Shown here: piece by piece, positions 17,039 through 29,416 of the stretch | Layout: every line of letters begins with the position of its first letter | Position numbering within the stretch: position 1 is the first letter of the stretch | Source of the DNA: an archaeon | GTDB taxonomy: Archaea; Nanobdellota; Nanobdellia; Woesearchaeales; GW2011-AR15 | Length of the DNA stretch: 57,057 nt | NCBI GenBank assembly: GCA_018671515.1 | Contig: JABHHN010000072.1 | Span: 1 to 57,057, forward strand | Direction: 5' to 3' | The notes under the pieces: generated by a model | The model's input: only the letters and a program-made list of their open reading frames with translations | Told to the model about the DNA's origin: nothing | The model's database searches: none | Made by a program: the position numbers and the translations under genes

Positions 17039-17908
17039 TCAATTTAATTCATTAATAATTTTAAACGTATCTTTATCAAATTTTGAGAATGCAAACCACT
17101 TTTTTCCTAAATCTTTAAGAGATGCTCCAATATGATATACTTCTTTATCATCAATAATTAAAAACCTATCATGAGATTTTGAAAATTTTTTAACAATTAT
17201 ATTTTCATACTGAGAATTATATTTATCTAAATCTAGTTTTAATTGTTTTGTAATATTTTTGGTATAAATTATAACAGATACATTTTTTTCTTTTTTGGTA
17301 AATAATGTTAAAACTGTATCATCAACATAATTATCAACAAGTACTATTGATTTTTTTGCAAATCTTATTTAATCAGAAATAAATTTGTATGCATCAAATA
17401 TTTGTCCATCAAAAAATATTCCTTTTTTTGGTTTTATTTCTTTGTTTTCTATTAGCTTAAAAATTTGTTCAAATTTACTGTCATGTTTCAATAATTTTTG
17501 TTCAACATTATCTATTCTTTGAAAAATTTGTGCATTTCTTTTTAAAATTTTTCTCATTATGATAAATGCTCTCATTATTTGGATATTTATTTCAATTGCT
17601 TTTTTACTTTTCAAAATTCCTGAAAGCATTGCTACTCCTTGTTCTGTAAAAACATAAGGTAAATATTTTCTGTGTATTCCTCTACCTTTTTCAAAGGTCG
17701 CAAATTGCGACCTTAAAGAATTATATTCAAAAGTTGTTAATTGAAACATAAAATCTTTTGGAAATCGTCGACTATTTCTTTTTACTTGCTCATTTAATCT
17801 TTTTGTTTTAACTTCATATAATTTAGATAAATCTCTATCAAGAATCACTTGTTTTCCTCTAATTGTATGAATTAGTGTATTAAAATTATTTTTTTCTAAA
17901 TTTACCAT
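17039..17908 (-). pseudogene. ORF6N (KilA-N-like) DNA-binding protein with PLD-like C-terminal domain, interrupted by TAA at 17369-17371
   Basis: IRGKQVILDRDLSKLY, LPYVFTEQGVAMLS; the same frame continues past the stop: IRFAKKSIVLVDNY...SHDRFLIIDDKEVYHIGASLKDLGKKWFAFSK. Confidence 0.85.
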
Positions 17909-17953
17909 GTTTATTATTATCAATTAAAATTGAGATATTATTGTATTTAAATA

Positions 17954-18805: not shown

Positions 18806-18993
18806 ATATTTATTTTTATTTTATTTAAATTTCTTTTTAAGAACTTTAATTGAATTATTAGTTCAATTAATATTTTAAATGTAGACGTATTTACTAATTA
18901 TTGGGGTCTGATTTAAATGAAATACAAATTAAAAAAACAATCACCAACAATCACTTTACTATTGGCTACTAAAATAATCGAGAGGTGTTTAAT

Positions 18994-19437
18994 ATGAGAA
19001 CATGGATATTTCAAGGAAATCCAGATGATTTTCCTATTTATGAATATATAAAGGGTTGTGATGAAATTACTTGGTTAGTTAACAAGTATGAAGATAAAAT
19101 TAAGGAAGGAGATGAAGTATATATCTGGAAGGGCGCAGGTAAAGAAAAAGGATCTGCAGGAATTATTGCAAAAGGAATAATATTATGCAATCCTAAATTA
19201 ATTGAAACAGATTTAGATGGACCATATCAATGGACATATCCAAGAAAATTAAAAGAGGAATTAAGGGTTAGAATTAAATTAATTGATAAAAGATTAAATC
19301 CTGCAAATAGGGTATCAAGAGAAGAATTTGAAGGAGATTTAGATTTAATGAATCATGCCATTATCTCAGGTTACCAAGGAATTAATTTCAAATTAAAAGA
19401 TGTTCAAGTTGAAAGATTAAATGAGTTGTGGAATTGA
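18994..19437 (+). CDS. EVE (PUA-like) domain protein
   Basis: TWIFQGNP, IKEGDEVYIW, GIIAKG, QGINF; SD GAGGTG. Confidence 0.85.
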   Translation: MRTWIFQGNPDDFPIYEYIKGCDEITWLVNKYEDKIKEGDEVYIWKGAGKEKGSAGIIAKGIILCNPKLIETDLDGPYQWTYPRKLKEELRVRIKLIDKRLNPANRVSREEFEGDLDLMNHAIISGYQGINFKLKDVQVERLNELWN

Positions 19438-19449
19438 ATATAGAATGAA

Positions 19450-19470
19450 AAAAATAAACATTTAAATATA
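19450..19470 (+). promoter_or_regulatory. Archaeal promoter P1 (BRE/TATA) for the his leader
   Basis: A-rich tract plus TTTAAATA at 19461, 32 bp before ATG 19493 (leaderless geometry like the RHH genes). Confidence 0.55.
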
Positions 19471-19492
19471 ACATAGATTTCACAAACATACC

Positions 19493-19546
19493 ATGAGAGC
19501 AAACAAAGACGATAGTCGTGATTGTATTCATTGTCGGACAAACTAG
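19493..19546 (+). CDS. His-operon leader peptide uORF1 MRANKDDSRDCIHCRTN
   Basis: 17 codons, single His codon (CAT 19529) within GAT TGT ATT CAT TGT, a motif shared with uORF2. Confidence 0.6.
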   Translation: MRANKDDSRDCIHCRTN

Positions 19547-19574
19547 TCCAGATTTTAGTAGTTCTAACTCTCAA

Positions 19575-19590
19575 GATAAATTTATAAAAA
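19575..19590 (+). promoter_or_regulatory. Probable tRNA-His promoter P2
   Basis: TTTATAAA at 19581, 48 bp before the tRNA. Confidence 0.5.
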
Positions 19591-19628
19591 TTTCACAAAG
19601 TAATTGTATTTCTCAAGATCAAATATAT

Positions 19629-19721
19629 GGCTGCGGTAGTTCAATGGTAGAATCCAGGACTGTGGAAACCAAAAACGGTTTCAGAAATCCTGGGACGCGA
19701 GTTCGATTCCCGCCTGCGGCC
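19629..19721 (+). tRNA. tRNA-His(GUG) with a 21-nt intron (19666-19686) at position 37/38
   Basis: Acceptor GCTGCGG/CTGCGGC, encoded G-1 and C73; anticodon stem CAGGA/TCCTG with GTG at 19662-19664; T-loop TTCGATT; near-canonical bulge-helix-bulge (CTG/CAG, AACC/GGTT); CCA not encoded. Confidence 0.95.
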
Positions 19722-19783
19722 CTTCTTAAAACAGAAGGCTCAAACAACATTTATTCGAGTGAAAGCGAGAATAATATACAAGC

Positions 19784-19839
19784 GCAGCGAAAAGTTTTTT
19801 CAAAAAATAATGAAAAAGCTCTACCTGCAACTCTTTTTT
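19784..19839 (+). terminator. Hairpin plus T-tracts between tRNA-His and hisG
   Basis: GCAG..AGTTTTTTCA/TGAAAAAGCT..CTGC stem followed by TTTTTT at 19834-19839. Confidence 0.45.
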
Positions 19840-19889
19840 CAAACAATAGCAATAACACCAACAAACAAACAACTGGAGGTTCTTTTAAC

Positions 19890-19943
19890 ATGGAAAGACT
19901 GGCAATAAGCAGTGATTGTATTCACTGTGGTACCAAAGAATAG
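19890..19943 (+). CDS. His-operon leader peptide uORF2 MERLAISSDCIHCGTKE, overlapping hisG out of frame
   Basis: Strong SD GGAGGT 9 nt before the ATG; single His codon CAC at 19923. Confidence 0.65.
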   Translation: MERLAISSDCIHCGTKE

Positions 19944-20487
19944 TGGATTACGTAGATATAGAGACATTGCAGTACAGAACTTTGGTCTGCAGAACAATGA
20001 AAAATTAGAAGTAAGGGGAGAAGATGTCCCTTTCTGGGTTGAATCCCTAATCAAAAAAGGAAAGAAAGCTATTGGCTTAACAGGTCAGGATCTATTTCGT
20101 GAATATACATTAGAAAACTACAATACCCAATTAAAGACTCTTAAGATTGTAGGTTGGGATGATGATAAAGCATTGTTTAGAAAACCTACATTATGTTTAT
20201 TAGGTCCAAATAAAAAAGATCTAAATACAATTCCAAGAAGCCAGACAGTATGTATTTCTAAAAAGTATAAAACATTAGCAAAAAAATATCTTAATTTGCT
20301 TGAGACTAAAGGATATACTTTTCAAAAGATATATGTAAGTGGTTCTACAGAAAGCAGTTATCAAGTAGGTATTGCAGATTTAGTTATTGATATTGTATAT
20401 TCAGGTAAATCAATTAATGAATTAGGCTTGAGCATATATGAAAAAATATTCTATTCAAATTTTGTAATAATAGGTGGTAAGCAATGA
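19912..20487 (+). CDS. hisG: ATP phosphoribosyltransferase, short divergent form; true start uncertain (GTG without SD, or entry by +1 frameshift from uORF2)
   Basis: VVPKNSGL, VRGEDVP, GLTGQDL, SGSTE, GIADLVIDIVYSGKS; first gene of the his operon. Confidence 0.88.
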   Translation: MIVFTVVPKNSGLRRYRDIAVQNFGLQNNEKLEVRGEDVPFWVESLIKKGKKAIGLTGQDLFREYTLENYNTQLKTLKIVGWDDDKALFRKPTLCLLGPNKKDLNTIPRSQTVCISKKYKTLAKKYLNLLETKGYTFQKIYVSGSTESSYQVGIADLVIDIVYSGKSINELGLSIYEKIFYSNFVIIGGKQ

Positions 20488-21776
20488 ATGTCAGAATACT
20501 AAATTATGATAAAGATAAAGAGGAAATTGAAAAGGTAAAACAAAGATCATCTATTGATCAGACACAGGTAGAAGATAAAGTAAAGGTAATCCTAAATAAT
20601 GTAAAAGAAAATGGAAATAAAGCACTAATTGATTATGCAAAATTATTTGACAAAGTAGAATTAGATGAAGAAGATTTGATTGTAACAAAAGAACAAATAA
20701 AAGAAGCATATACTAAATTAGAACCTAATAAAATTATTGCAATCAAAAAAGCATTATCAAATATCACAAGATTTGCACAACTTCAAAAACCAAAACCATT
20801 CCTAGAAGAAATTGCACCTGGTGTAAAATGCGGTACACTAATTAAACCAATTGAAAAAGTAGGATGCTACATCCCTGGTGGAAATTATCCTTTACCTTCA
20901 ACAACTTTAATGACTGTTGGACCAGCAAAAGTTGCAGGTGTAAAAGAAATAATTGTTTCAACTCCTCCTCAAAAAAACGGAGGAGCTAATCCAGCAACAA
21001 TTGTTGCAGCAGATATTGCAGGTGCAACAAAGATAGTTATTTCAGGGGGAGCACAGGCAATTGCTGCAATGGCGTATGGAACTAGAACAATACCTAAAGT
21101 AAATAAGATTGTAGGCCCAGGAAATATTTATGTAACTGCAGCAAAAAAATTATTATATGGTGAAGTAGGAATAGATATGCCTGCAGGACCAAGTGAAGTA
21201 GTAATTTTAGCATCATCTGATTCAAATCCAAAATATATCGCTTCCGATATGTTAGCACAAGCAGAACACGATGTTGTTGCATGCGGATTATTATTTACTG
21301 ATTCAATGGAATTAGCTAATAAAGTAAAACAGGAAATAATTATCCAGACAGAAAAATTAGCATCAAAAGAAATCATAAAAAAATCATTTGAGAATTATAG
21401 CTGTATTGTTTTAGTAAAAACAGTCACTGACGTAATTGATTTTTGTAATGATTTTGCACCAGAACACTTAGAAATAATTGGTTATGATGAATCAATATTA
21501 GATAAGATAACAAATGCAGGTTCAATATTTTTTGGAGAATATTCTGTTGAAGCTGCAGGAGATTATTGCTCAGGAACAAACCACGTAATCCCAACAGGTG
21601 GATTTTCAAAAGTAAGAGGAGGATTATCAGTATATGACTTTTTGAAAATGCCAACAATACAAAAATTATCAAGACAGGGATTAGAATCATTAAAAGACAC
21701 GATTACAACGCTAGCTGAAATGGAAAGTTTACCAGCACACGCAAATTCAGCAAAGATTAGATTTGAAGGTGAATAA
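20484..21776 (+). CDS. hisD: Histidinol dehydrogenase
   Basis: YIPGG, GGAQAIAAMAYG, GPGNIYV, AGPSE, QAEHD, APEHL, GTNHV. Confidence 0.98.
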   Translation: MNVRILNYDKDKEEIEKVKQRSSIDQTQVEDKVKVILNNVKENGNKALIDYAKLFDKVELDEEDLIVTKEQIKEAYTKLEPNKIIAIKKALSNITRFAQLQKPKPFLEEIAPGVKCGTLIKPIEKVGCYIPGGNYPLPSTTLMTVGPAKVAGVKEIIVSTPPQKNGGANPATIVAADIAGATKIVISGGAQAIAAMAYGTRTIPKVNKIVGPGNIYVTAAKKLLYGEVGIDMPAGPSEVVILASSDSNPKYIASDMLAQAEHDVVACGLLFTDSMELANKVKQEIIIQTEKLASKEIIKKSFENYSCIVLVKTVTDVIDFCNDFAPEHLEIIGYDESILDKITNAGSIFFGEYSVEAAGDYCSGTNHVIPTGGFSKVRGGLSVYDFLKMPTIQKLSRQGLESLKDTITTLAEMESLPAHANSAKIRFEGE

Positions 21777-21777
21777 T

Positions 21778-22824
21778 ATGCAACCAAAAGAATCAGTAAG
21801 AAATATGGCACCATATAATCCTCCTACTTCATCAAGGAGTGATTTTATTAGATTGGACTTCAATGAAAACACATCAGGATGTTCACCTAAAGTATTACAG
21901 GCATTAAGAACTATCACAGAAAAGGAATTTTGCATGTATCCAGAATATAATGAATTAAAAAATGACATTGCAAAATTAAATGATATTGATAAAAATAAAA
22001 TCATCCCTACAAACGCAGGAGATGAAGGAATAATGCTTGTGATGAATACTTTCATTGAAAAAGGAGATGAAATATTATTGCCTACTCCAACATTTGCAAT
22101 GTTCAAATTCTATGCACAATTAAATGATGCAGATATCAAAGAAGTACAATACAATGAAAACCTATTGTTTCCGATAGATAATCTACTAAATAAAATTAAT
22201 GAAAAAACAAAGATGATAATTTTAGTGAATCCAAATAATCCAACTGGAACATCAATTAAAAGAGATGATATAATCAGAGTTTTGGAAAAGGCAAAAGATT
22301 CAATTGTATTTTTGGATGAAGCATATTATGATTTCACAAAAAATACATGCATTGATCTAATTGATAAATACCAGAATTTAGTGATATTAAGATCATTTTC
22401 AAAAGCATTTGGTCTTGGTGGATTAAGACTTGGATATTTGATATCAAATAAAGAAAACATCAAGATATTTCAGAAAGTAAATTCACCTTATAGTATTTCA
22501 TTTATTGCAAATAAAGTACTAAAGGCTGCAATAGAAGATTTTGATTATGTGGATAATTATGTTTCACAAATTATGAAAAATAAAGAATTCTTATATAATG
22601 AATTTGAAAAGATGAATATCAAATATTACAAAGGGGATGCTAATTTTTTCTTAGCAGATTTTGGTGAAAGCTATAAGATAATATATGATAAACTTAAAGA
22701 AAGAGGAATACTTCTTAGAGATAGGAATAGTTATGTCAAAAATACTCTCAGGATTACTGTAGGTACAAAGAAGCAATGCGAATTATTGATAAAGGAGTTG
22801 AATGAAATATGGATGAAGAGATAG
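21778..22824 (+). CDS. hisC: Histidinol-phosphate aminotransferase
   Basis: LDFNEN, NPNNPTG, DEAY, RSFSKAFGLGGLRLGY; SD AGGTGA. Confidence 0.96.
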   Translation: MQPKESVRNMAPYNPPTSSRSDFIRLDFNENTSGCSPKVLQALRTITEKEFCMYPEYNELKNDIAKLNDIDKNKIIPTNAGDEGIMLVMNTFIEKGDEILLPTPTFAMFKFYAQLNDADIKEVQYNENLLFPIDNLLNKINEKTKMIILVNPNNPTGTSIKRDDIIRVLEKAKDSIVFLDEAYYDFTKNTCIDLIDKYQNLVILRSFSKAFGLGGLRLGYLISNKENIKIFQKVNSPYSISFIANKVLKAAIEDFDYVDNYVSQIMKNKEFLYNEFEKMNIKYYKGDANFFLADFGESYKIIYDKLKERGILLRDRNSYVKNTLRITVGTKKQCELLIKELNEIWMKR

Positions 22825-23477
22825 ATACGATTATATTTGACATGGACGGGGTTTTAGTTGATGAATCAAAATCATATAGACTTGCAATAAAAAAAACTGC
22901 TGAGTTTTTTCTTGATAATAAAAAAGAAATTTCAATGGATATGATTGAATCATACAAGGAAAGAGGTGGTCTCAATAATGATTGGGATTGCACAGAAGCT
23001 ATCCTAAAAGATAATGGTGCAGATATTGATAAAGAAAAAATCATCGAAAAATTTGATGATATATATATCAATGAAACAATTAAATCTGAAACATTGATTA
23101 TCAGACGAGAAATTCTTGAAGAGCTTTCTAAAATATATAAGTTAGGAATTGTTACAGGAAGACCAAAACGTGATGCTAATTTGGCAATATTCAATTTTAA
23201 TCTTGCTAGATATTTTAATACATATATTACAATGGAAGATGTAGAAAATCAAAAACCATCACCAGATGGAATTATAAAATGTATGAAAAGACTTGGCTCC
23301 AAAAAGGCAATATATTTTGGGGACACTATTGATGATATGAGAGCTGCAAAATCTGCAGGAATAATTGGTATTGGAGTTATGCCACTTGTTTTTTCAGGAA
23401 AATTAAAAAATTTGCTTATTGAAAATGGAGCATCAAATGTACTTGATAATATAAATGAAATTGTGGAGGTTTTATAA
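22809..23477 (+). CDS. HAD-family hydrolase, probable histidinol-phosphate phosphatase
   Basis: FDMDGVLVD, GGLNNDWD, VTGRP, KPSP, GDTIDD; sits between hisC and hisB. Confidence 0.85.
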   Translation: MDEEIDTIIFDMDGVLVDESKSYRLAIKKTAEFFLDNKKEISMDMIESYKERGGLNNDWDCTEAILKDNGADIDKEKIIEKFDDIYINETIKSETLIIRREILEELSKIYKLGIVTGRPKRDANLAIFNFNLARYFNTYITMEDVENQKPSPDGIIKCMKRLGSKKAIYFGDTIDDMRAAKSAGIIGIGVMPLVFSGKLKNLLIENGASNVLDNINEIVEVL

Positions 23478-24061
23478 TGAGAAAATCAAGAATTACAAGA
23501 AAGACAAATGAGACTGATATAAAAATAAAATTAGATGTTGATGGAACAGGGAAATCAAAGATAAATACACCAATTGGATTTTTCAATCACATGTTAGAGG
23601 CATTTTCAAAACATGGACTTTTTGATCTCGAGATAGATGTCAAAGGAGACATAGAAGTTGATCAGCACCACACAGTTGAAGATATAGGAATTGCACTAGG
23701 TAATGCATTTTTAGATGCATTAGATGACAAAAAAGGGATAAACAGATCAGGTTATTTTGTATATCCAATGGATGAAGCACTAGCAGTTGTTGCAATTGAT
23801 TTATCAGGAAGACCTTATCTACAATATGATGCAGAATTCAAGAGAAGATATTGTGGTGAGCTTGATACTGATTTACTTCATGATTTTTTTGAAGCTTTTG
23901 CAGTAAATCTAAAGGCAAATGTTGTTGTAAGAATGCCTTATGGAAGAAGTGACCACCACAAGATTGAAGCAATCTTTAAAGCATTTGCAAAAGCAATGAA
24001 GATGGCATGTGAAAAAGATGATAGAATAAAAGGCGTTTTGAGTACGAAGGGCGTTATATAA
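23477..24061 (+). CDS. hisB: Imidazoleglycerol-phosphate dehydratase
   Basis: FFNHML, DQHHTVED, PMDEA, DHHKIEAIFKA, STKG. Confidence 0.98.
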   Translation: MRKSRITRKTNETDIKIKLDVDGTGKSKINTPIGFFNHMLEAFSKHGLFDLEIDVKGDIEVDQHHTVEDIGIALGNAFLDALDDKKGINRSGYFVYPMDEALAVVAIDLSGRPYLQYDAEFKRRYCGELDTDLLHDFFEAFAVNLKANVVVRMPYGRSDHHKIEAIFKAFAKAMKMACEKDDRIKGVLSTKGVI

Positions 24062-24124
24062 GTTTCAATGATGAAATATTTATTTCTTTTTTTTTGAAAT
24101 AAATATTCAGGCTTCGCCTTCATT

Positions 24125-24151
24125 ATAGCAAGCCTTTGGCTTGCAATTGTG
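24125..24151 (+). repeat. REP-like palindrome, family TAGCAAG (copy 1)
   Basis: ATAGCAAGCC-TTT-GGCTTGCAATTGTG; related copies at 34801, 47922, 50240. Confidence 0.85.
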
Positions 24152-24310
24152 GATAGTGAAGTGTTAAAGTTAGAATAACTTTGACAATACGAATGAAATG
24201 AGTTATCTATACACTATGATGAAGAAAGAAGATGAAGTATTCTTTCCTGACATGTTGAAAAAAAGAAAATTCAAAATTAACAAAAAAAAAATTAAATGGA
24301 GATATAAAAA

Positions 24311-24916
24311 ATGAGAATTGCAATCATCGATTATGGTGGGGGGAATATTGGAAGTGTGAAGAATGCACTAGATTATTTAGGAGTAGATTCAATAATTACA
24401 GACAATCCTGATGAAATAATAAATGCAGATAAGATGATACTTCCAGGTCAAGGTAGATTTGGAGATGTGATGAATAAATTAAATGAAAAAAACCTGATCA
24501 AAACAATACTTGAAGAAATAAATAATAAAAAACCATATTTAGGAATATGCATAGGATTGCAGATACTTTTTGAATCAGGTGAAGAAGATCCAGAAATAAA
24601 AGGATTGAATCTGATAAAAGGAACTGTTCCTAAATTCAAGATTGAACAAAAAGTACCACAAATAGGATGGAATTCAATTACTAAAATGAAGTATTCAAAA
24701 TTACTAAATGGAATTAATAATTTAGATTTTTTCTATTTCGTACACTCATATTATTGCATAACAGATGATAAAGAATCAATATTAACCAAAACAGATTATG
24801 GAATTAATTTTGTTAGTGCAATAGAAAAAGATAATATTTATGCAACACAGTTCCACCCAGAAAAATCAGGAAAATCAGGATTAAAATTATTAAAAAACTT
24901 TTGTGAGGTAATCTAA
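24311..24916 (+). CDS. hisH: Imidazole glycerol phosphate synthase, glutaminase subunit
   Basis: [32 protein letters not shown]. Confidence 0.98.
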
Positions 24917-24917
24917 A

Positions 24918-25673
24918 ATGCTTACAAAAAGAATTATACCGTGTCTTGATGTAAAAAATGGACGTGTAGTAAAAGGAACGAAATTCAAGAATTTAGTAGA
25001 CATAGGTGATCCTGTAGAATTAGCTATAAAATATTATAATGAAGGTGCAGATGAATTATGTTTTTTAGATATTACTGCATCCATTGAAAAAAGAAAAACA
25101 ATGATTGAAATGGTAAAAAAAGTTGCAGATAATATTTTTATACCTTTCACAGTAGGTGGTGGAATAAAAACCATTGAAGATATAAGACTGCTCTTAAAAA
25201 ACGGAGCAGATAAAGTTACTTTTTGTACAGAGGCAATAACAAATCCAGATATAATAAAAGAGGCATCGGATAAATTTGGTTCACAATGTATTGTAATTTC
25301 AGTTGATGTAAAAAGAAATGGAAAAGGATGGGAACCATATATTTATGGTGGAAAAAAAGAGACTGGATTGGATGCATTAGAATTTGCAAAAAAATGTGAA
25401 AAATTGGGTGCAGGTGAAATATTATTGAACTCTTTAGACACAGATGGGATGAAACAAGGATATGATTTAGAAATAACAAAACAAATTTCAGAATCATTGA
25501 ACATTCCAGTAATAGCTAGTAGCGGTGCAGGAACACTAGAACAGATATATGAAGCATTCACAAAAGGAAAAGCTGACGCTGCTTTAGCGGCGTCAATATT
25601 TCACTATAACACTTATTCAATAAAACAAGTAAAAGATTATTTAAAAAATAAAGGAGTTGATGTAAGATTATAA
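24918..25673 (+). CDS. hisF: Imidazole glycerol phosphate synthase, cyclase subunit
   Basis: [36 protein letters not shown]. Confidence 0.98.
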
Positions 25674-25725
25674 CGGAAAAAATTGGAAAATTTTTTAGTT
25701 TTCAGAGTGGAGCAGAGGCGGAACG

Positions 25726-26976
25726 ATGATAATCCCAAGCATAGATATACTAAACGGACGAGCTGTAAAGCTTGTAAAAGGAGATCCAAATAATAAGAAA
25801 TTTGAGACAAATGCATTAGAGCTAGCTCAAAGTTTTTCAATATTTCCAGAAATAAATCTCATAGATTTAGATGCGGCATTAGGCACAGGAAATAATATTG
25901 AACTAATAAGAAAAATATCAAAAATATGCACATGCAATGTTGGCGGAGGAATAAGAACAACAAAAATAGCATATGATTTACTAAAGGCAGGTGCAAATAA
26001 AATTATTATTGGAACAAAGGCTGATGTTGAATTCCTAAAACAATTACCTAAAGAAAAAATCATAATTGCAATTGATTCACGGAAAGGAAAAATTGTTGAC
26101 AAAGGCTGGACAAATGAAATAGATGAAACAACCATTGATAGAGCAAATAGATTAAAAAATTATTGCAATTCCTTCCTTTACACATATGTCGACAAAGAAG
26201 GAACACTAGAAGATATTGATGAAAATACAGTAAATGAATTAAAAAAAATCACAAAAAACAAAATTCAATATGCTGGAGGAATTTCTAGCAAAGACCAAAT
26301 TATAAAATTAGAATCACTTGGAGTTGACGCAGTTGTAGGTATGGCTTATTATGAAAATAAAATAGATATATATGAAACATTTGTTGATCTACTAAACTTC
26401 AAAAAAAGCATGGGACTAATCCCTACAATTGTAAAAAACACAAATGGACAAATACTGATGCTTGCATATAGCAATAGAGAATCTGTAATAAAATCAATAA
26501 AGGAAAGAAAAGGAATCTATTTTTCAAGAAGTAGACAAGAACTCTGGGAAAAAGGACTCACTTCTGGAAATACACAGGAACTAAAAAATATAAAAGTAGA
26601 TTGTGATAGAGATACATTGATTTACAAAGTATTGCAAAAAAATGTTGCATGCCACACAGGAGCATATACTTGCTTCGAAGATGAAGATTTCAACATGGAA
26701 TCATTATATGAAATTATTGAATCAAAAATAAGTGAAAGTAATTCATTTACAGATAAAGTATATAATGATGAGACGATGTTAAAAGAAAAGATAATTGAAG
26801 AGGCAGATGAAGTAGTTAATTTTAAGAATAAAGATAACTTAACCTGGGAAATAGCAGATTTATTATATTTTATATCAATACTTATGAAAAAGAATGGTAT
26901 TGATTACAAAGATATAAATAATGAATTAAAAATCAGGAATCTGATGAAAAAAACAATCAATAATACAAAACTTTGA
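25726..26976 (+). CDS. hisA: HisA-HisI-HisE trifunctional fusion
   Basis: IIPSIDI, IDLDAA, VGGGIR (HisA); FSRSRQELWEKGLTSGN, DCDRD, ACHTG (HisI); KIIEEADE, WEIADLLY (HisE). Confidence 0.92.
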   Translation: MIIPSIDILNGRAVKLVKGDPNNKKFETNALELAQSFSIFPEINLIDLDAALGTGNNIELIRKISKICTCNVGGGIRTTKIAYDLLKAGANKIIIGTKADVEFLKQLPKEKIIIAIDSRKGKIVDKGWTNEIDETTIDRANRLKNYCNSFLYTYVDKEGTLEDIDENTVNELKKITKNKIQYAGGISSKDQIIKLESLGVDAVVGMAYYENKIDIYETFVDLLNFKKSMGLIPTIVKNTNGQILMLAYSNRESVIKSIKERKGIYFSRSRQELWEKGLTSGNTQELKNIKVDCDRDTLIYKVLQKNVACHTGAYTCFEDEDFNMESLYEIIESKISESNSFTDKVYNDETMLKEKIIEEADEVVNFKNKDNLTWEIADLLYFISILMKKNGIDYKDINNELKIRNLMKKTINNTKL

Positions 26977-26986
26977 GGCACAAAAA

Positions 26987-28102
26987 ATGATAAACCTATC
27001 TGAGCAGAGAGTAATTGAAGATACATTCTTCAAAGCAAATATGTCATACTATAAACCAAGTCTTTATTTTCATTTTGCAAACTACTTCCATGAAGAGCAA
27101 GAATACACTGAAAATACTGATATCAAATTAAAGCATTTCCTTAAAGGAGATAAGAATATGGCATTCAATAAGGTCTTAAAAAAAGATCTTAAATTGATGC
27201 TTAAGGAGATAAAAACAACTCCAAAACAGTTTGATGAAAATTTATGGAAAGGTATGCTTCCAAAAATAAGAACTGAAATAAAAAAAACATTAGGACTTGC
27301 ATTTAAACCACGTTTATTATTTTTTGAAGATAGTTTTCCTCATGGTCTTATGAGTTTTGAAAAAAAAGGAGCTTCATCAGTTACAATTTTTGAAGGACAG
27401 GATGATGCAGGTGTATATTTCCTAAATAAAAGAGTATCATCTTTTTTTACACCTATACTTATGATTCATGAGCAGATACATTCATGTCTTTCACAAAACA
27501 AGACTAAAGATCAGATGTATATAGAATGGTTTGAAGAAGGACTTGCACAATGGTTTTCATTATTGATATATTATAATATCACAAAAAATATGGAAGTAAT
27601 AAAATTATACAAGGAAAGATGTTATATATTTAGCAAGGTAAAATCTGAGCATAATTTCACAAGAAGATATTTTGAATATATGAAAATAATGTCAAAATTA
27701 TATTTATCTGGTGGTCCAGAATTATTAGGTAAGATGCTTATGAAATATATGTCAAATGATAGGAAGAAAGTAAATTCATATCTTAATTATGATAAAGGAA
27801 TTAAGTATGTTCCTAAGAAAGATATAGAAAATTTTCTTGTGAATTTCACAGATGTATATGAACCTGAAAAATTACCACCAATTGAATATTTGATATTAAA
27901 GGAATCAGTAAAACCAAAAACAGTTGAAGAAATCTCAAAGAAAACAAAAGCACCAGTTGAACTTATTCAAAAGGCAGGTTTTGCACTTAGATTTAAAGGA
28001 ATGATTATAGTTACACAAGATAATAAGATTGAAATTAATTGGAGAAAAAAAGATCTTTTAGAAAAGGATCTCATAAAGCCATTTTGGCCACTAAAGAAAT
28101 AG
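26987..28102 (+). CDS. Hypothetical protein with HExxH zincin-like motif and possible C-terminal wHTH
   Basis: MIHEQIHS followed by WFEEGLAQW; C-terminal TVEEISKKT...LRFKGMI. Confidence 0.7.
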   Translation: MINLSEQRVIEDTFFKANMSYYKPSLYFHFANYFHEEQEYTENTDIKLKHFLKGDKNMAFNKVLKKDLKLMLKEIKTTPKQFDENLWKGMLPKIRTEIKKTLGLAFKPRLLFFEDSFPHGLMSFEKKGASSVTIFEGQDDAGVYFLNKRVSSFFTPILMIHEQIHSCLSQNKTKDQMYIEWFEEGLAQWFSLLIYYNITKNMEVIKLYKERCYIFSKVKSEHNFTRRYFEYMKIMSKLYLSGGPELLGKMLMKYMSNDRKKVNSYLNYDKGIKYVPKKDIENFLVNFTDVYEPEKLPPIEYLILKESVKPKTVEEISKKTKAPVELIQKAGFALRFKGMIIVTQDNKIEINWRKKDLLEKDLIKPFWPLKK

Positions 28103-28111
28103 GTGATATTC

Positions 28112-29416
28112 ATGGATAAAAAATTTAAATTACAATCAGCAAAAGGAGTAAGGGACTTTCCACCTCAAGAAAAAATACTTAGAGACAGAATTTTAAATAC
28201 AATAAAAGAAGTCTTTGAATTATATGGGTTTAATCCAATTGAACTTCCAATTCTTGAGCGATATGATACACTGGCTGCAAAGTTTACTGCTGGTGAAGAA
28301 TCAGATGCATTAAAAGAAATATTTGTTACACAAGATAATGGGAAAAGAAAATTAGGACTTAGATTTGATTTGACTGTTCCATTTTCAAGATACATAGGAC
28401 TTAACCCTGATGTAAAAATGCCTTTTAAAAAATATATCACAGGACAGGTATTTAGAGATGGTCCTATGAAAAAAGGAAGATATCGAGAATTTACTCAGTT
28501 TGATCCAGATATTGTAGGATGTGCAGATGTAATTGCTGATGCAGAAATTATGTCAATTACAGAAGAAGTTTTTAAGAGATTTGGTTTTGATGTAGAAATT
28601 GAATTTAACACAAGAAAATTACTAAATGGAATTTTGGAAGATCTAAAAGTTTCAGATGAACAAAAAATGAGTGCAATAATTTCTATTGATAAATTCAAAA
28701 AAATTGGTGAGAAAGGAGTAAGAAAAGAATTATTAGAAAAAGGAATTGATGAAGATAAGATATCTAAATTGTTTGTTTATCTTAAACCCGGAAAAACAAA
28801 TGAAGAGACTTATCAAAATATTAAAAAATTAATTAAATCTGATATTTGTTTGGAAGGATTAAAAGAAATAGAAGACCTTCTGGCATATATCAAAGAATAT
28901 GACTTGAAACATGTAACATTTTTGCCTAGTCTTGCACGTGGTCTTGCATATTATACAGGTCCAGTATATGAAGCATTCCTAAAAGATTCTACAATTACAT
29001 CATCTGCAGCAGGTGGCGGTAGATATGATGAAATGATTGGGAAATTCTTAGGTGGAAAAAGAGTTATACCTGCAACAGGAATTTCATTTGGTATTGAAGT
29101 AATTGTTGAAGCATTAAAAGAAAAAGAAAAACTTGATCAAAAAACAGTGACATCAGTTTATGTCATTCCAATAAAGACAAGAAAAGAGACAATTAAAATT
29201 GTTCAGAAATTAAGGAAGTCTGGAATAAAGACAGACATGGATTTAATGACTAGGGGAATTAGTAAGAATTTACAATATGCAAATACCTATGGAATTCCTT
29301 ATGTTATTTTTGTTGGTCAAAGAGAACTTGATGAAGGTAAGTTCAAGTTGAGAGACATGAAATCAGGTGAGGAAGAAATGCTTGAATTGGATGATATAAT
29401 TAAGAAGTTGAAATAG
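28112..29416 (+). CDS. hisS: Histidine-tRNA ligase
   Basis: KGVRDF, LRFDLTVP, GRYREFTQ, ARGLAYYTG, GGGRYD, C-terminal anticodon-binding domain. Confidence 0.97.
   Translation: MDKKFKLQSAKGVRDFPPQEKILRDRILNTIKEVFELYGFNPIELPILERYDTLAAKFTAGEESDALKEIFVTQDNGKRKLGLRFDLTVPFSRYIGLNPDVKMPFKKYITGQVFRDGPMKKGRYREFTQFDPDIVGCADVIADAEIMSITEEVFKRFGFDVEIEFNTRKLLNGILEDLKVSDEQKMSAIISIDKFKKIGEKGVRKELLEKGIDEDKISKLFVYLKPGKTNEETYQNIKKLIKSDICLEGLKEIEDLLAYIKEYDLKHVTFLPSLARGLAYYTGPVYEAFLKDSTITSSAAGGGRYDEMIGKFLGGKRVIPATGISFGIEVIVEALKEKEKLDQKTVTSVYVIPIKTRKETIKIVQKLRKSGIKTDMDLMTRGISKNLQYANTYGIPYVIFVGQRELDEGKFKLRDMKSGEEEMLELDDIIKKLK

Follow-up and report, generated by a model that had tools for sequence, protein, structure and literature searches.

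In bacterial hisL, ribosomes read the supply of charged tRNA-His on a leader open reading frame (ORF) that contains His codons and is located upstream of hisG. The T-box, a cis-acting leader of Firmicute amino-acid operons, responds to tRNA charging. We have analysed a 57,057-nucleotide (nt) stretch of DNA (hereafter the window; contig JABHHN010000072.1 of GenBank assembly GCA_018671515.1) from a Woesearchaeales archaeon, in which the his operon is preceded by a leader of a different design. Between positions 19461 and 20487 there are, in this order, a TATA-like box, a short upstream ORF (uORF1), a frame that bridges a tRNA-His gene, a second short ORF (uORF2) and, in the next +1 frame, hisG. 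Based on this arrangement and on its counterparts in related genomes, we consider it probable that serial His-tRNA-sensing modules for programmed +1 frameshifting gate the his operon. Whereas hisL combines a run of His codons with alternative terminator and antiterminator hairpins, the leaders described here have one to three His codons and no conserved terminator, and their output would be a change of frame. The T-box differs in that it binds the uncharged tRNA directly, without a ribosome; here, the tRNA gene itself lies in the leader.

Among programmed frameshifts, that of release factor 2 (RF2, gene prfB) resembles the window leader in having a short zero-frame ORF before the main +1 product and a nearby Shine-Dalgarno (SD)-like stimulator. 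In the passages of a review that deal with it (Atkins et al. 2016, PMC5009743), prfB is described with a CUU_U shift site and an internal SD-like stimulator a few nt upstream, the device being both sensor and effector. Unlike prfB, the present modules have a sense His codon in the A site instead of UGA, would sense charged tRNA-His instead of a release factor, and are found in an archaeon. They are also stacked in twos or threes, and one of the new-frame ORFs is a non-coding "passage" over a tRNA gene.

Hungry-codon shifts, such as those of Ty1 (CUU-AGG-C) and Ty3 and the starvation frameshifts studied by Gallant, are alike in their dependence on a shortage of A-site aminoacyl-tRNA and in the P-site CUU, as covered in the corresponding passages of the same review (PMC5009743). 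Ty1 differs in relying on a constitutively rare tRNA and in setting a fixed ratio. The starvation frameshifts of Escherichia coli are described in these passages as errors and, regarding starvation-specific trans-frame products, it is stated there that "no examples are known" (Atkins et al. 2016, PMC5009743). Unlike the Ty1 and E. coli sites, the window site lies in the biosynthetic operon of its own amino acid. Frameshifting also occurs in an amino-acid operon leader peptide, that of E. coli pheL, where the review passages treat it as an incidental by-product of attenuation features (PMC5009743). The pheL shift gives no access to the downstream gene. In Archaea, fucA1 of Saccharolobus solfataricus is likewise a cellular gene split over two frames, but it uses a -1 shift on A-AAA-AAT, is a single gene of one lineage and has no known regulatory purpose. 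The relevant part of a 2021 review of archaeal recoding (PMC8211752) gives fucA1 as the sole frameshift demonstrated in Archaea, with +1 shifting merely suspected in virus HSTV-2. A full-text literature search, with subscription journals outside its reach, retrieved no published hisG frameshift or His-sensing frameshift.

Anatomy of the leader in the window

The TATA-like box (TTTAAATA, 19461-19468; forward strand, as all features of the leader) is located 32 nt 5' of the uORF1 ATG, which implies that the uORF1 mRNA is leaderless. uORF1 (19493..19546) is formed by 17 codons and a stop (19544-19546) and reads MRANKDDSRDCIHCRTN. Its sole His codon, CAT at 19529-19531, stands 4 codons ahead of the stop and closes the first shift module (CGT GAT TGT ATT CAT, 19517..19531), in which an SD-like GTGAT is followed by TGT in the E site, ATT in the P site and His in the A site. 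uORF2 (19890..19943, MERLAISSDCIHCGTKE) has a Shine-Dalgarno sequence, GGAGG (19875..19879), 10 nt 5' of its ATG and has in common with uORF1 the module ..S-D-C-I-H-C. Here too there is a single His codon (CAC, 19923-19925), 5 codons ahead of the stop, and it closes the second module (AGT GAT TGT ATT CAC, 19911..19925); after a +1 shift the next codon would be ACT at 19924.

This shift would lead into the hisG frame (19912..20487, +1 of uORF2), a 191-amino-acid (aa) ORF devoid of His residues that matches the Pfam HisG family with an E-value of 1.9e-19 (PF01634, 70.6 bits, cut-off 25.5) and scores 67.4 bits with TIGR00070, under the 75.75 cut-off of that model. The encoded protein corresponds to a short-form ATP phosphoribosyltransferase, lacking the C-terminal regulatory domain. 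The predicted shift product is MERLAISSDCI-TVVPKNSG..., with ..LAISSDCITVVPK as the predicted junction peptide.

The frame entered by a +1 shift in uORF1, hereafter the bridging frame (19497..19943), contains 148 sense codons and ends with TAG at 19941-19943; in the ORF listing it appears as 141 aa counted from GTG 19518. It crosses the tRNA-His gene, enters uORF2 in frame and has no His codon before module 2. It has no stop, against 5 and 16 stops in the two remaining frames, and it stayed open in 23 of 20000 dinucleotide shuffles of both non-tRNA flanks. Among the tRNA-spanning frames of the 31 Rfam tRNAs of this genome (27% G+C) it is the longest, followed by frames of 101 and 92 codons. 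The next-longest frames, on contigs C26, C73 and C69, were treated as chance; one overlaps the end of an upstream gene, and inspection by eye, with no family search, revealed neither a feeding uORF nor, in the long frames immediately 3', an obvious biosynthetic gene at these three sites.

The tRNA-His gene itself (19629..19722) was identified through an Rfam RF00005 match (19630-19721, 46.7 bits, E 9.8e-9). It has an encoded G-1 at 19629, anticodon GTG, discriminator C and an intron in the anticodon loop, seen as 24 unaligned letters in the Rfam alignment. ARAGORN called no tRNA in the window, this intron-bearing gene having gone undetected, and an Rfam scan of 19300-20100 at E<=1 returned RF00005 and no T-box or other leader family. 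All the elements named in the original prediction, which was made from the sequence of the window (TATA box, uORF1, +1 frame, tRNA-His, uORF2 and hisG), were thus recovered, with coordinates within one base.

The two modules are copies, 84% identical and 394 nt apart, of a 25-nt direct repeat, and the genome carries a second tRNA-His gene on contig C117 that is 97.9% identical to that of the window and is spanned by a frame of 53 codons. The upstream region of this second copy resembles, by eye, the stretch around TTTATAAAA (19581..19589), which on the same by-eye comparison may be an internal promoter of the window tRNA. These features could point to a historical accident, an inserted tRNA-His segment having duplicated the hisG start, or else to pseudogenes or assembly errors. 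Both modules, however, match contigs from three further sequencing runs, belonging to three different studies, with 0 differing letters and 0 indels, and such identity in independent samples indicates that the frame structure is not an assembly error. The arrangement is moreover conserved across DPANN phylum-level lineages with divergent sequence, hisG is well conserved past the shift site, and unselected duplicates would soon gain stops in a genome of this base composition. An accident or artefact is therefore hardly credible. The module sequence GAYTGYATTCAY occurs at 3 sites of the genome, corresponding to the two leader modules and to one site in an unrelated stretch on contig C44.

Two T6 tracts (19795-19800 and 19834-19839) are found within the bridging frame and are specific to the window. 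The C117 tRNA-His copy (genome G000, C117:13726-13960) has the same intron, its own TATA box and a T5 tract. About 130 nt past it, 14 nt of the tRNA 3' end are repeated, as if an integrated element had left an att-site scar there.

The proposed +1 step into hisG among relatives

The layout was found in metagenome-assembled genomes of several DPANN groups (Woesearchaeota/Nanoarchaeota, Pacearchaeota, Iainarchaeota and Aenigmatarchaeota). A hisG of the window's type was present in 9 of 41 related genomes, the window's own genome being counted. The locus sets comprised 7 usable loci from related genomes, 45 from genome contigs and 55 from metagenome contigs; of the last set 48 were parsed and 16 dropped as duplicates, leaving 32 new ones. 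Further exclusions were L011, L012, L013, L016, L027, L051 and L054 (duplicates, from the same genomes as L002-L008), L009 (long-form hisG, another type), L010 (same place as L008), L055 (weak bacterial partial match), L094, L107 and L112-L116 (match without the N-terminus) and L093 (too little upstream sequence). The shift-type loci fill at least six well-supported clades of the HisG tree.

We have classified 75 non-redundant hisG loci without making use of His, seeking a start in the interval delimited by the upstream stop and the conserved P-x-N; L038, nearly identical to L039, was left out of this classification only. The hisG frame has no ATG in 55 of the 75 loci, and ATG, GTG and TTG are all absent in 11 (for example L002, L003, L005, L032, L045 and L052). 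In 43 of the 55 ATG-less loci, a uORF that starts with ATG in the -1 frame overlaps the hisG frame and has a His codon where the two overlap. When the overlap windows were defined without reference to His, 43 of 45 contained it, and His was the top-ranked residue. In most loci an SD and ATG are located 9-12 codons ahead of CAY and a zero-frame stop 2-12 codons past it. Comparing the hisG upstream regions of relatives, as the original prediction proposed, revealed that both the His-codon module at the hisG start and the +1 relation of the frames are conserved: the uORF of the relatives carries ..[S/G]-[D/G]-C-[I/L]-H (NUU-CAY), 2-3 codons 5' of the HisG P-K/N-N (by eye and by script). In a further lineage (L048, L099-L108) the site is located 17-32 codons upstream of the conserved P and the uORF is a different one (..SEPLVH-QQQ.., ..SAH-QHS..), the His codon being again exactly at the opening of the hisG frame. 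Taken together, the sequences suggest that the his operon of this archaeon and of many relatives appears to be reached only via a +1 slip at His codons.

Natural in-frame variants gave indirect support to the predicted junction. Compared with five shift-type kin, L043 has a single-base gap at the ATT/CAT junction, and its ATG aligns with their uORF2 ATG. It encodes M..AKDCI-IVVPNN, matching the predicted shift product, and the SD-like AGTGAT of the shift-type kin is AAAGAC in L043. In the HisG tree, L043 is nested in the shift-type clade with support 100/100. A second in-frame counterpart, L014, encodes ..QDYI-IVVPKN. The product MERLAISSDCI-TVVPK, proposed at the outset, has therefore in-frame equivalents in nature.

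HisG could also start by itself, with no frameshift, at GTG 19912 in the window and at GTG or TTG in relatives, the uORFs being ordinary and having a modest effect at most. Of the 55 ATG-less loci, 44 do have a GTG or TTG in frame with hisG and 5' of the conserved P, often arising from the GTGAT of the module itself, and MIVFTVVPK would be a plausible HisG N-terminus. This explanation is nevertheless at odds with the 11 loci that have no canonical start, with an SD positioned for the uORF2 ATG and not for the GTG, and with the in-frame variants L043 and L014, which start at the uORF2-equivalent ATG and have a uORF2-type N-terminus. In addition, a ribosome paused at CAY would cover the GTG located 9 nt upstream, producing the wrong regulatory sign, and the His-free open frame over the tRNA and the stop/start overlaps (see below) would be left unexplained. 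Hence, we regard initiation independent of a shift as unlikely.

An arrangement of another form was observed in L008 (L008:1231-1500, family f16), where no tRNA was found. The +1 frame of its leader uORF (MQRVDCFHCRKF) ends with ..FFSHHH before the stop, the hisG frame is open for 60 codons upstream without a nearby start, and a 29-codon uORF2 (..GADCLHC..) overlaps the HisG N-terminus.

Module consensus and histidine content

We have listed 72 modules, 34 upstream and 38 at hisG. The "hisG" module of L040 was judged a false pick, leaving 71, and four CAY sites were skipped by hand as non-modules. The consensus is GGTGRT-TGY-NTT-CAY, covering -12 to +2 when counted from the first base of the His codon. 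The most conserved positions are G-9 and T-7/-6, and this includes the upstream modules, which are free of HisG coding constraint. The module can be divided into four parts. An SD-like purine stretch with the consensus GGTGAT ends 3 nt ahead of the P-site codon; the E-site codon is T-G/A-Y; NUU predominates in the P site, where CCC or CGS also occur; and the A site is occupied by CAY. In E. coli prfB, the corresponding spacing is AGGGGG-UAU-CUU-UGA. The GGTGAT or GGGGG of the present modules, ending 3 nt before the P-site codon, has the same geometry as that of RF2. Pace-like loci have TGGGGG-TAT-CCC-CAY and TGGAGT-TAT-CGG-CAT. Re-pairing of the P-site tRNA in the +1 frame, as judged by rule, would be good for CUU-C, UUU-C and CCC-C, and would involve 2 of 3 positions for AUU-C.

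The SD-like part is complementary to the 3' end of 16S rRNA, which is GGATCACCTCCT in 4/4 relatives; the anti-SD was taken from these four, the own 16S 3' end being unassembled. The predicted pairing with the anti-SD peaks for 8-mers starting at -13/-12 from CAY. In 15-nt windows, the mean pairing energy was -6.8 (n=34) and -5.9 (n=37) kcal/mol for the upstream and hisG modules, against locus means of -3.5 and -3.3, and the modules had a median within-locus percentile of 0.09-0.10.

The A-site codon was His in 71/71 kept modules, His having been part of the picking criteria. Leaders usually have one His codon (range one to three). The protein encoded downstream is itself poor in this residue: among the 13619 residues of HisG and its fusions there are 9 His, and several HisG-HisC-HAD fusions of 760 aa lack the residue altogether. 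Regarding the fusions, Iainarchaeal HisG (L039:2501-4783; L035, L036, L042, L053 and others) is joined, by eye, to HisC-like and HAD-phosphatase-like regions in a single His-free ORF of about 760 aa; in other lineages its fusion partner seems to be a HAD domain, HisE or HisI-HisE.

The tRNA-His leader and a putative histidine switch

A tRNA-His gene with G-1 and anticodon GTG precedes hisG, in the same orientation, by 29-404 nt in 31 non-redundant loci. Three of these (L004:1287-1418, L005:1227-1427 and L006:1305-1439) carry a two-intron tRNA-His, with introns in the anticodon loop and T arm, that was recovered by regular expression only; Rfam did not detect them even at E<=0.1. The bridging frame is open through both introns in the three loci. 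Since the regular-expression finders missed known tRNAs, a lack of tRNA-His matches in the metagenome loci carries no weight. In 4 of the 7 family genomes that have the module (G005, G010, G011 and G013), the leader gene was the sole match to the tRNA-His pattern, a count that is bound by this pattern and by incomplete assemblies; a second copy was present in G000, G009 and G015. If the leader holds the sole tRNA-His, its transcription must continue even with ample His, and the hold on hisG must consequently act after transcription. In most loci the gap between the tRNA and the next SD is 8-25 nt, which leaves no space for a promoter and suggests that tRNA and hisG are co-transcribed. Quadruplet decoding by a special tRNA-His was considered and rejected, as the anticodon loops have the normal 7 nt (by eye) and the in-frame variants have no His at the junction (I-I-V-V-P). 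Outside the window's clade, locus L009 (G018:C11) has an ordinary long-type hisG (MKIKLALPKGR..) with a HisRS-like gene directly upstream and a tRNA-His pattern match ~1.7 kb upstream of hisG on the same strand, so that the linkage of tRNA-His, hisS and hisG extends beyond the frameshift device.

In 23 of the 31 loci, the frame in which the anticodon forms a codon is open over the whole tRNA. In 21 loci the bridge reaches at least 40 nt upstream of the tRNA, and the counts of its 5' ends and stops are based on these. At its 5' end, the bridge of 19/21 loci shares a stretch with a short ATG-started uORF of the -1 frame, and this stretch includes His; a real uORF is lacking in the remaining two. 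Ahead of the tRNA, none of the three start codons (ATG, GTG, TTG) occurs in five bridges, and in a further four the first one is at least 96 nt into the frame. At the other end, the stop falls -9 to +10 nt from the next ATG (ATGA, TAG-ATG, ATGnTAn) in 14/21, whereas the bridge enters uORF2 in frame in 5/21, window included, and ends 17-19 nt short in 2/21. In 26 of 30 loci, the first uORF ATG is preceded by a TATA-like box whose start is 24-38 nt upstream, again implying leaderless uORF1 mRNAs. The peptides of the leader uORFs vary by lineage (..GDC[I/R]H, ..AGCIH, ..WSYRH, ..WGYPH, ..QDCLH), and Iainarchaeota have MNPTFFP..SDLLH, without a tRNA. Three modules in series occur in L003 and L002. 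The motif and the open bridging frame are thus conserved in several deep DPANN lineages in which the surrounding sequence differs, the opposite of what would have spoken against the original prediction.

The 1682 codons of 19 bridges include 2 for His in frame, whereas CAY occurs 28 and 33 times in the other two frames (binomial p 4e-9, a value overstated by the kinship of the loci). This bears on whether the +1 shift could be constitutive, setting a fixed low HisG level or product ratio with no sensing of His. Many programmed frameshifts do set fixed ratios, according to passages of the review cited above (PMC5009743), and SD-like stimulators act regardless of amino-acid supply. A constitutive shift would not account, however, for the presence of His in 43/45 and 19/21 windows defined without it, and in all the modules (picked partly on His), in a histidine operon. 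Likewise, the avoidance of His by both the bridge and HisG is sensible only if they are translated when His is scarce. A shift with no sensing seems to us improbable.

Classical attenuation by a leader peptide, in which pausing at His codons would alter RNA folding, pre-tRNA processing or termination without any frameshift, has in its favour that cognate-codon leader ORFs are the hallmark of bacterial hisL and that conservation extends to the leaderless uORF1 and to the His close to its end. Such a mechanism does not require an open +1 frame, yet stops are kept out of this frame across variable spacers and introns, its His codons are depleted and its end lies at the next ATG. It would also not explain why hisG is in another frame and start-less in 11 loci, and we have found neither a conserved terminator nor, in the Rfam scan of the window described above, a leader or T-box match. 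We consider it decidedly improbable.

In the mechanism that we favour, serial +1 shifting, ribosomes would read CAY and terminate when His-tRNA-His is plentiful, and the leader RNA would yield tRNA-His and hardly any HisG, if any. Under a shortage of charged tRNA-His, the A site would be empty, which would let the ribosome move +1. Shifted ribosomes from the leaderless uORF1 would then translate the His-free frame through tRNA-His and reach uORF2 or hisG, in frame in the window or by stop/start overlap in relatives. A second shift, at the uORF2 His codon, would enter hisG and originate MERLAISSDCI-TVVPK... The response to histidine is what the identity of the A-site codon suggests, and we infer from the arrangement as a whole that the shift occurs, that His supply sets its rate and that the passage of ribosomes over the tRNA has an effect. 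Candidate effects are translational coupling, anti-termination, or preservation of the RNA as mRNA by preventing the pre-tRNA from folding and being cut. Translational coupling is the best supported purpose of bridge translation, given the stop/start overlaps, and keeping the pre-tRNA unfolded and uncut would fit the sole-copy tRNA-His finding. Intrinsic termination is not supported, as a scoring of T-tracts revealed a run of T>=5 between tRNA and hisG in just 7 of 31 loci. The cascade as originally predicted thus gained comparative support for its serial shifts and its open frame, but lost its terminator-like elements, which are not conserved.

More tentatively, the leader may be a transcript-fate switch, through which one RNA becomes either tRNA-His or his mRNA by means of stackable "frameshift attenuators". 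With His plentiful, translation would stop in uORF1, and the RNA would fold and be cut to tRNA-His while the his genes stay silent. With His scarce, ribosomes would shift +1 at hungry His codons, plough through the pre-tRNA, thereby preventing its folding and cutting, and reach hisG past a second and, in some lineages, a third His checkpoint. Serial checkpoints of this kind would give a steep, power-law response without a regulatory protein.

Several observations weigh against serial shifting. Some of the 72 modules were picked by eye, and the P-site codons of some upstream modules (CGC, CGG, ATG) would re-pair poorly in +1, as judged by rule. The loci are kin, so that p-values overstate the case. 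The five new bridges from metagenomes (304 codons) show a weaker bias, with 2 in-frame His against 3 and 12 off-frame. The bridge is closed in 8 of the 31 loci, and a conserved T-tract terminator is absent, as stated above. A uORF2 or hisG led by an SD could start without the bridge, so that any role of the latter is putative. Finally, the GTG or TTG codons of 44 of the 55 ATG-less loci and GTG 19912, a possible alternative start of the window hisG, mean that initiation without a shift could take place at these loci.

If serial shifting is confirmed, it would represent a previously undescribed way to sense amino-acid shortage, the first amino-acid biosynthetic operon run by programmed frameshifting at a hungry codon for the amino acid that it makes, the first +1 frameshift conserved in cellular genes of Archaea and the first reading frame maintained across a functional tRNA gene. 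It would mean that small-genome DPANN archaea regulate metabolism purely in cis via the ribosome, and "hungry codon" frameshifting would go from laboratory error to physiological sensor. The short module (SD-like sequence, 3 nt, NUU, CAY) could serve as a tunable amino-acid sensor, and the design might exist for further amino acids. As for annotation, single-frame gene calling is expected to place the start of such hisG genes at an internal GTG or to overlook it, and several intron-bearing tRNA-His genes were missed by ARAGORN and Rfam.

In one Woesearchaeal clade (L018, L021, L023, L024, L028 and L029), the tRNA-His has an in-frame TAA or TAG (..GAATAAGCGG..) that closes the bridge; these loci retain the hisG-proximal module. 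In L020 and L023, a distant leaderless uORF (MKRVGY[I/L]H..) is followed by short +1 ORFs ending in ..FHH or ..YHH.

Downstream of hisG, the remainder of the his operon (20484..29416, forward strand) comprises hisD, hisC, a HAD phosphatase, hisB, hisH, hisF, a hisA-hisIE fusion, a 371-aa ORF and hisS. The 371-aa ORF (26987-28102, between hisA-hisIE and hisS) matched no Pfam or NCBIfam family and has no likeness to HisRS or HisZ. There is no separate hisZ in the operon, even though HisG is of the short form.

The DNA of the window is present in marine metagenomes. A single 244-nt contig from an RNA library (run X20) covers 19350-19536 only, reaching from the end of an upstream ORF into uORF1; it may derive from DNA, reveals neither a transcript nor its strand or end, and was not used as evidence of expression. 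This upstream ORF (18985-19437) has a weak match to the EVE domain (E 6e-4, below the Pfam cut-off), and an ORF6N-domain protein is encoded on the minus strand at 17369-17923, also upstream of the leader.

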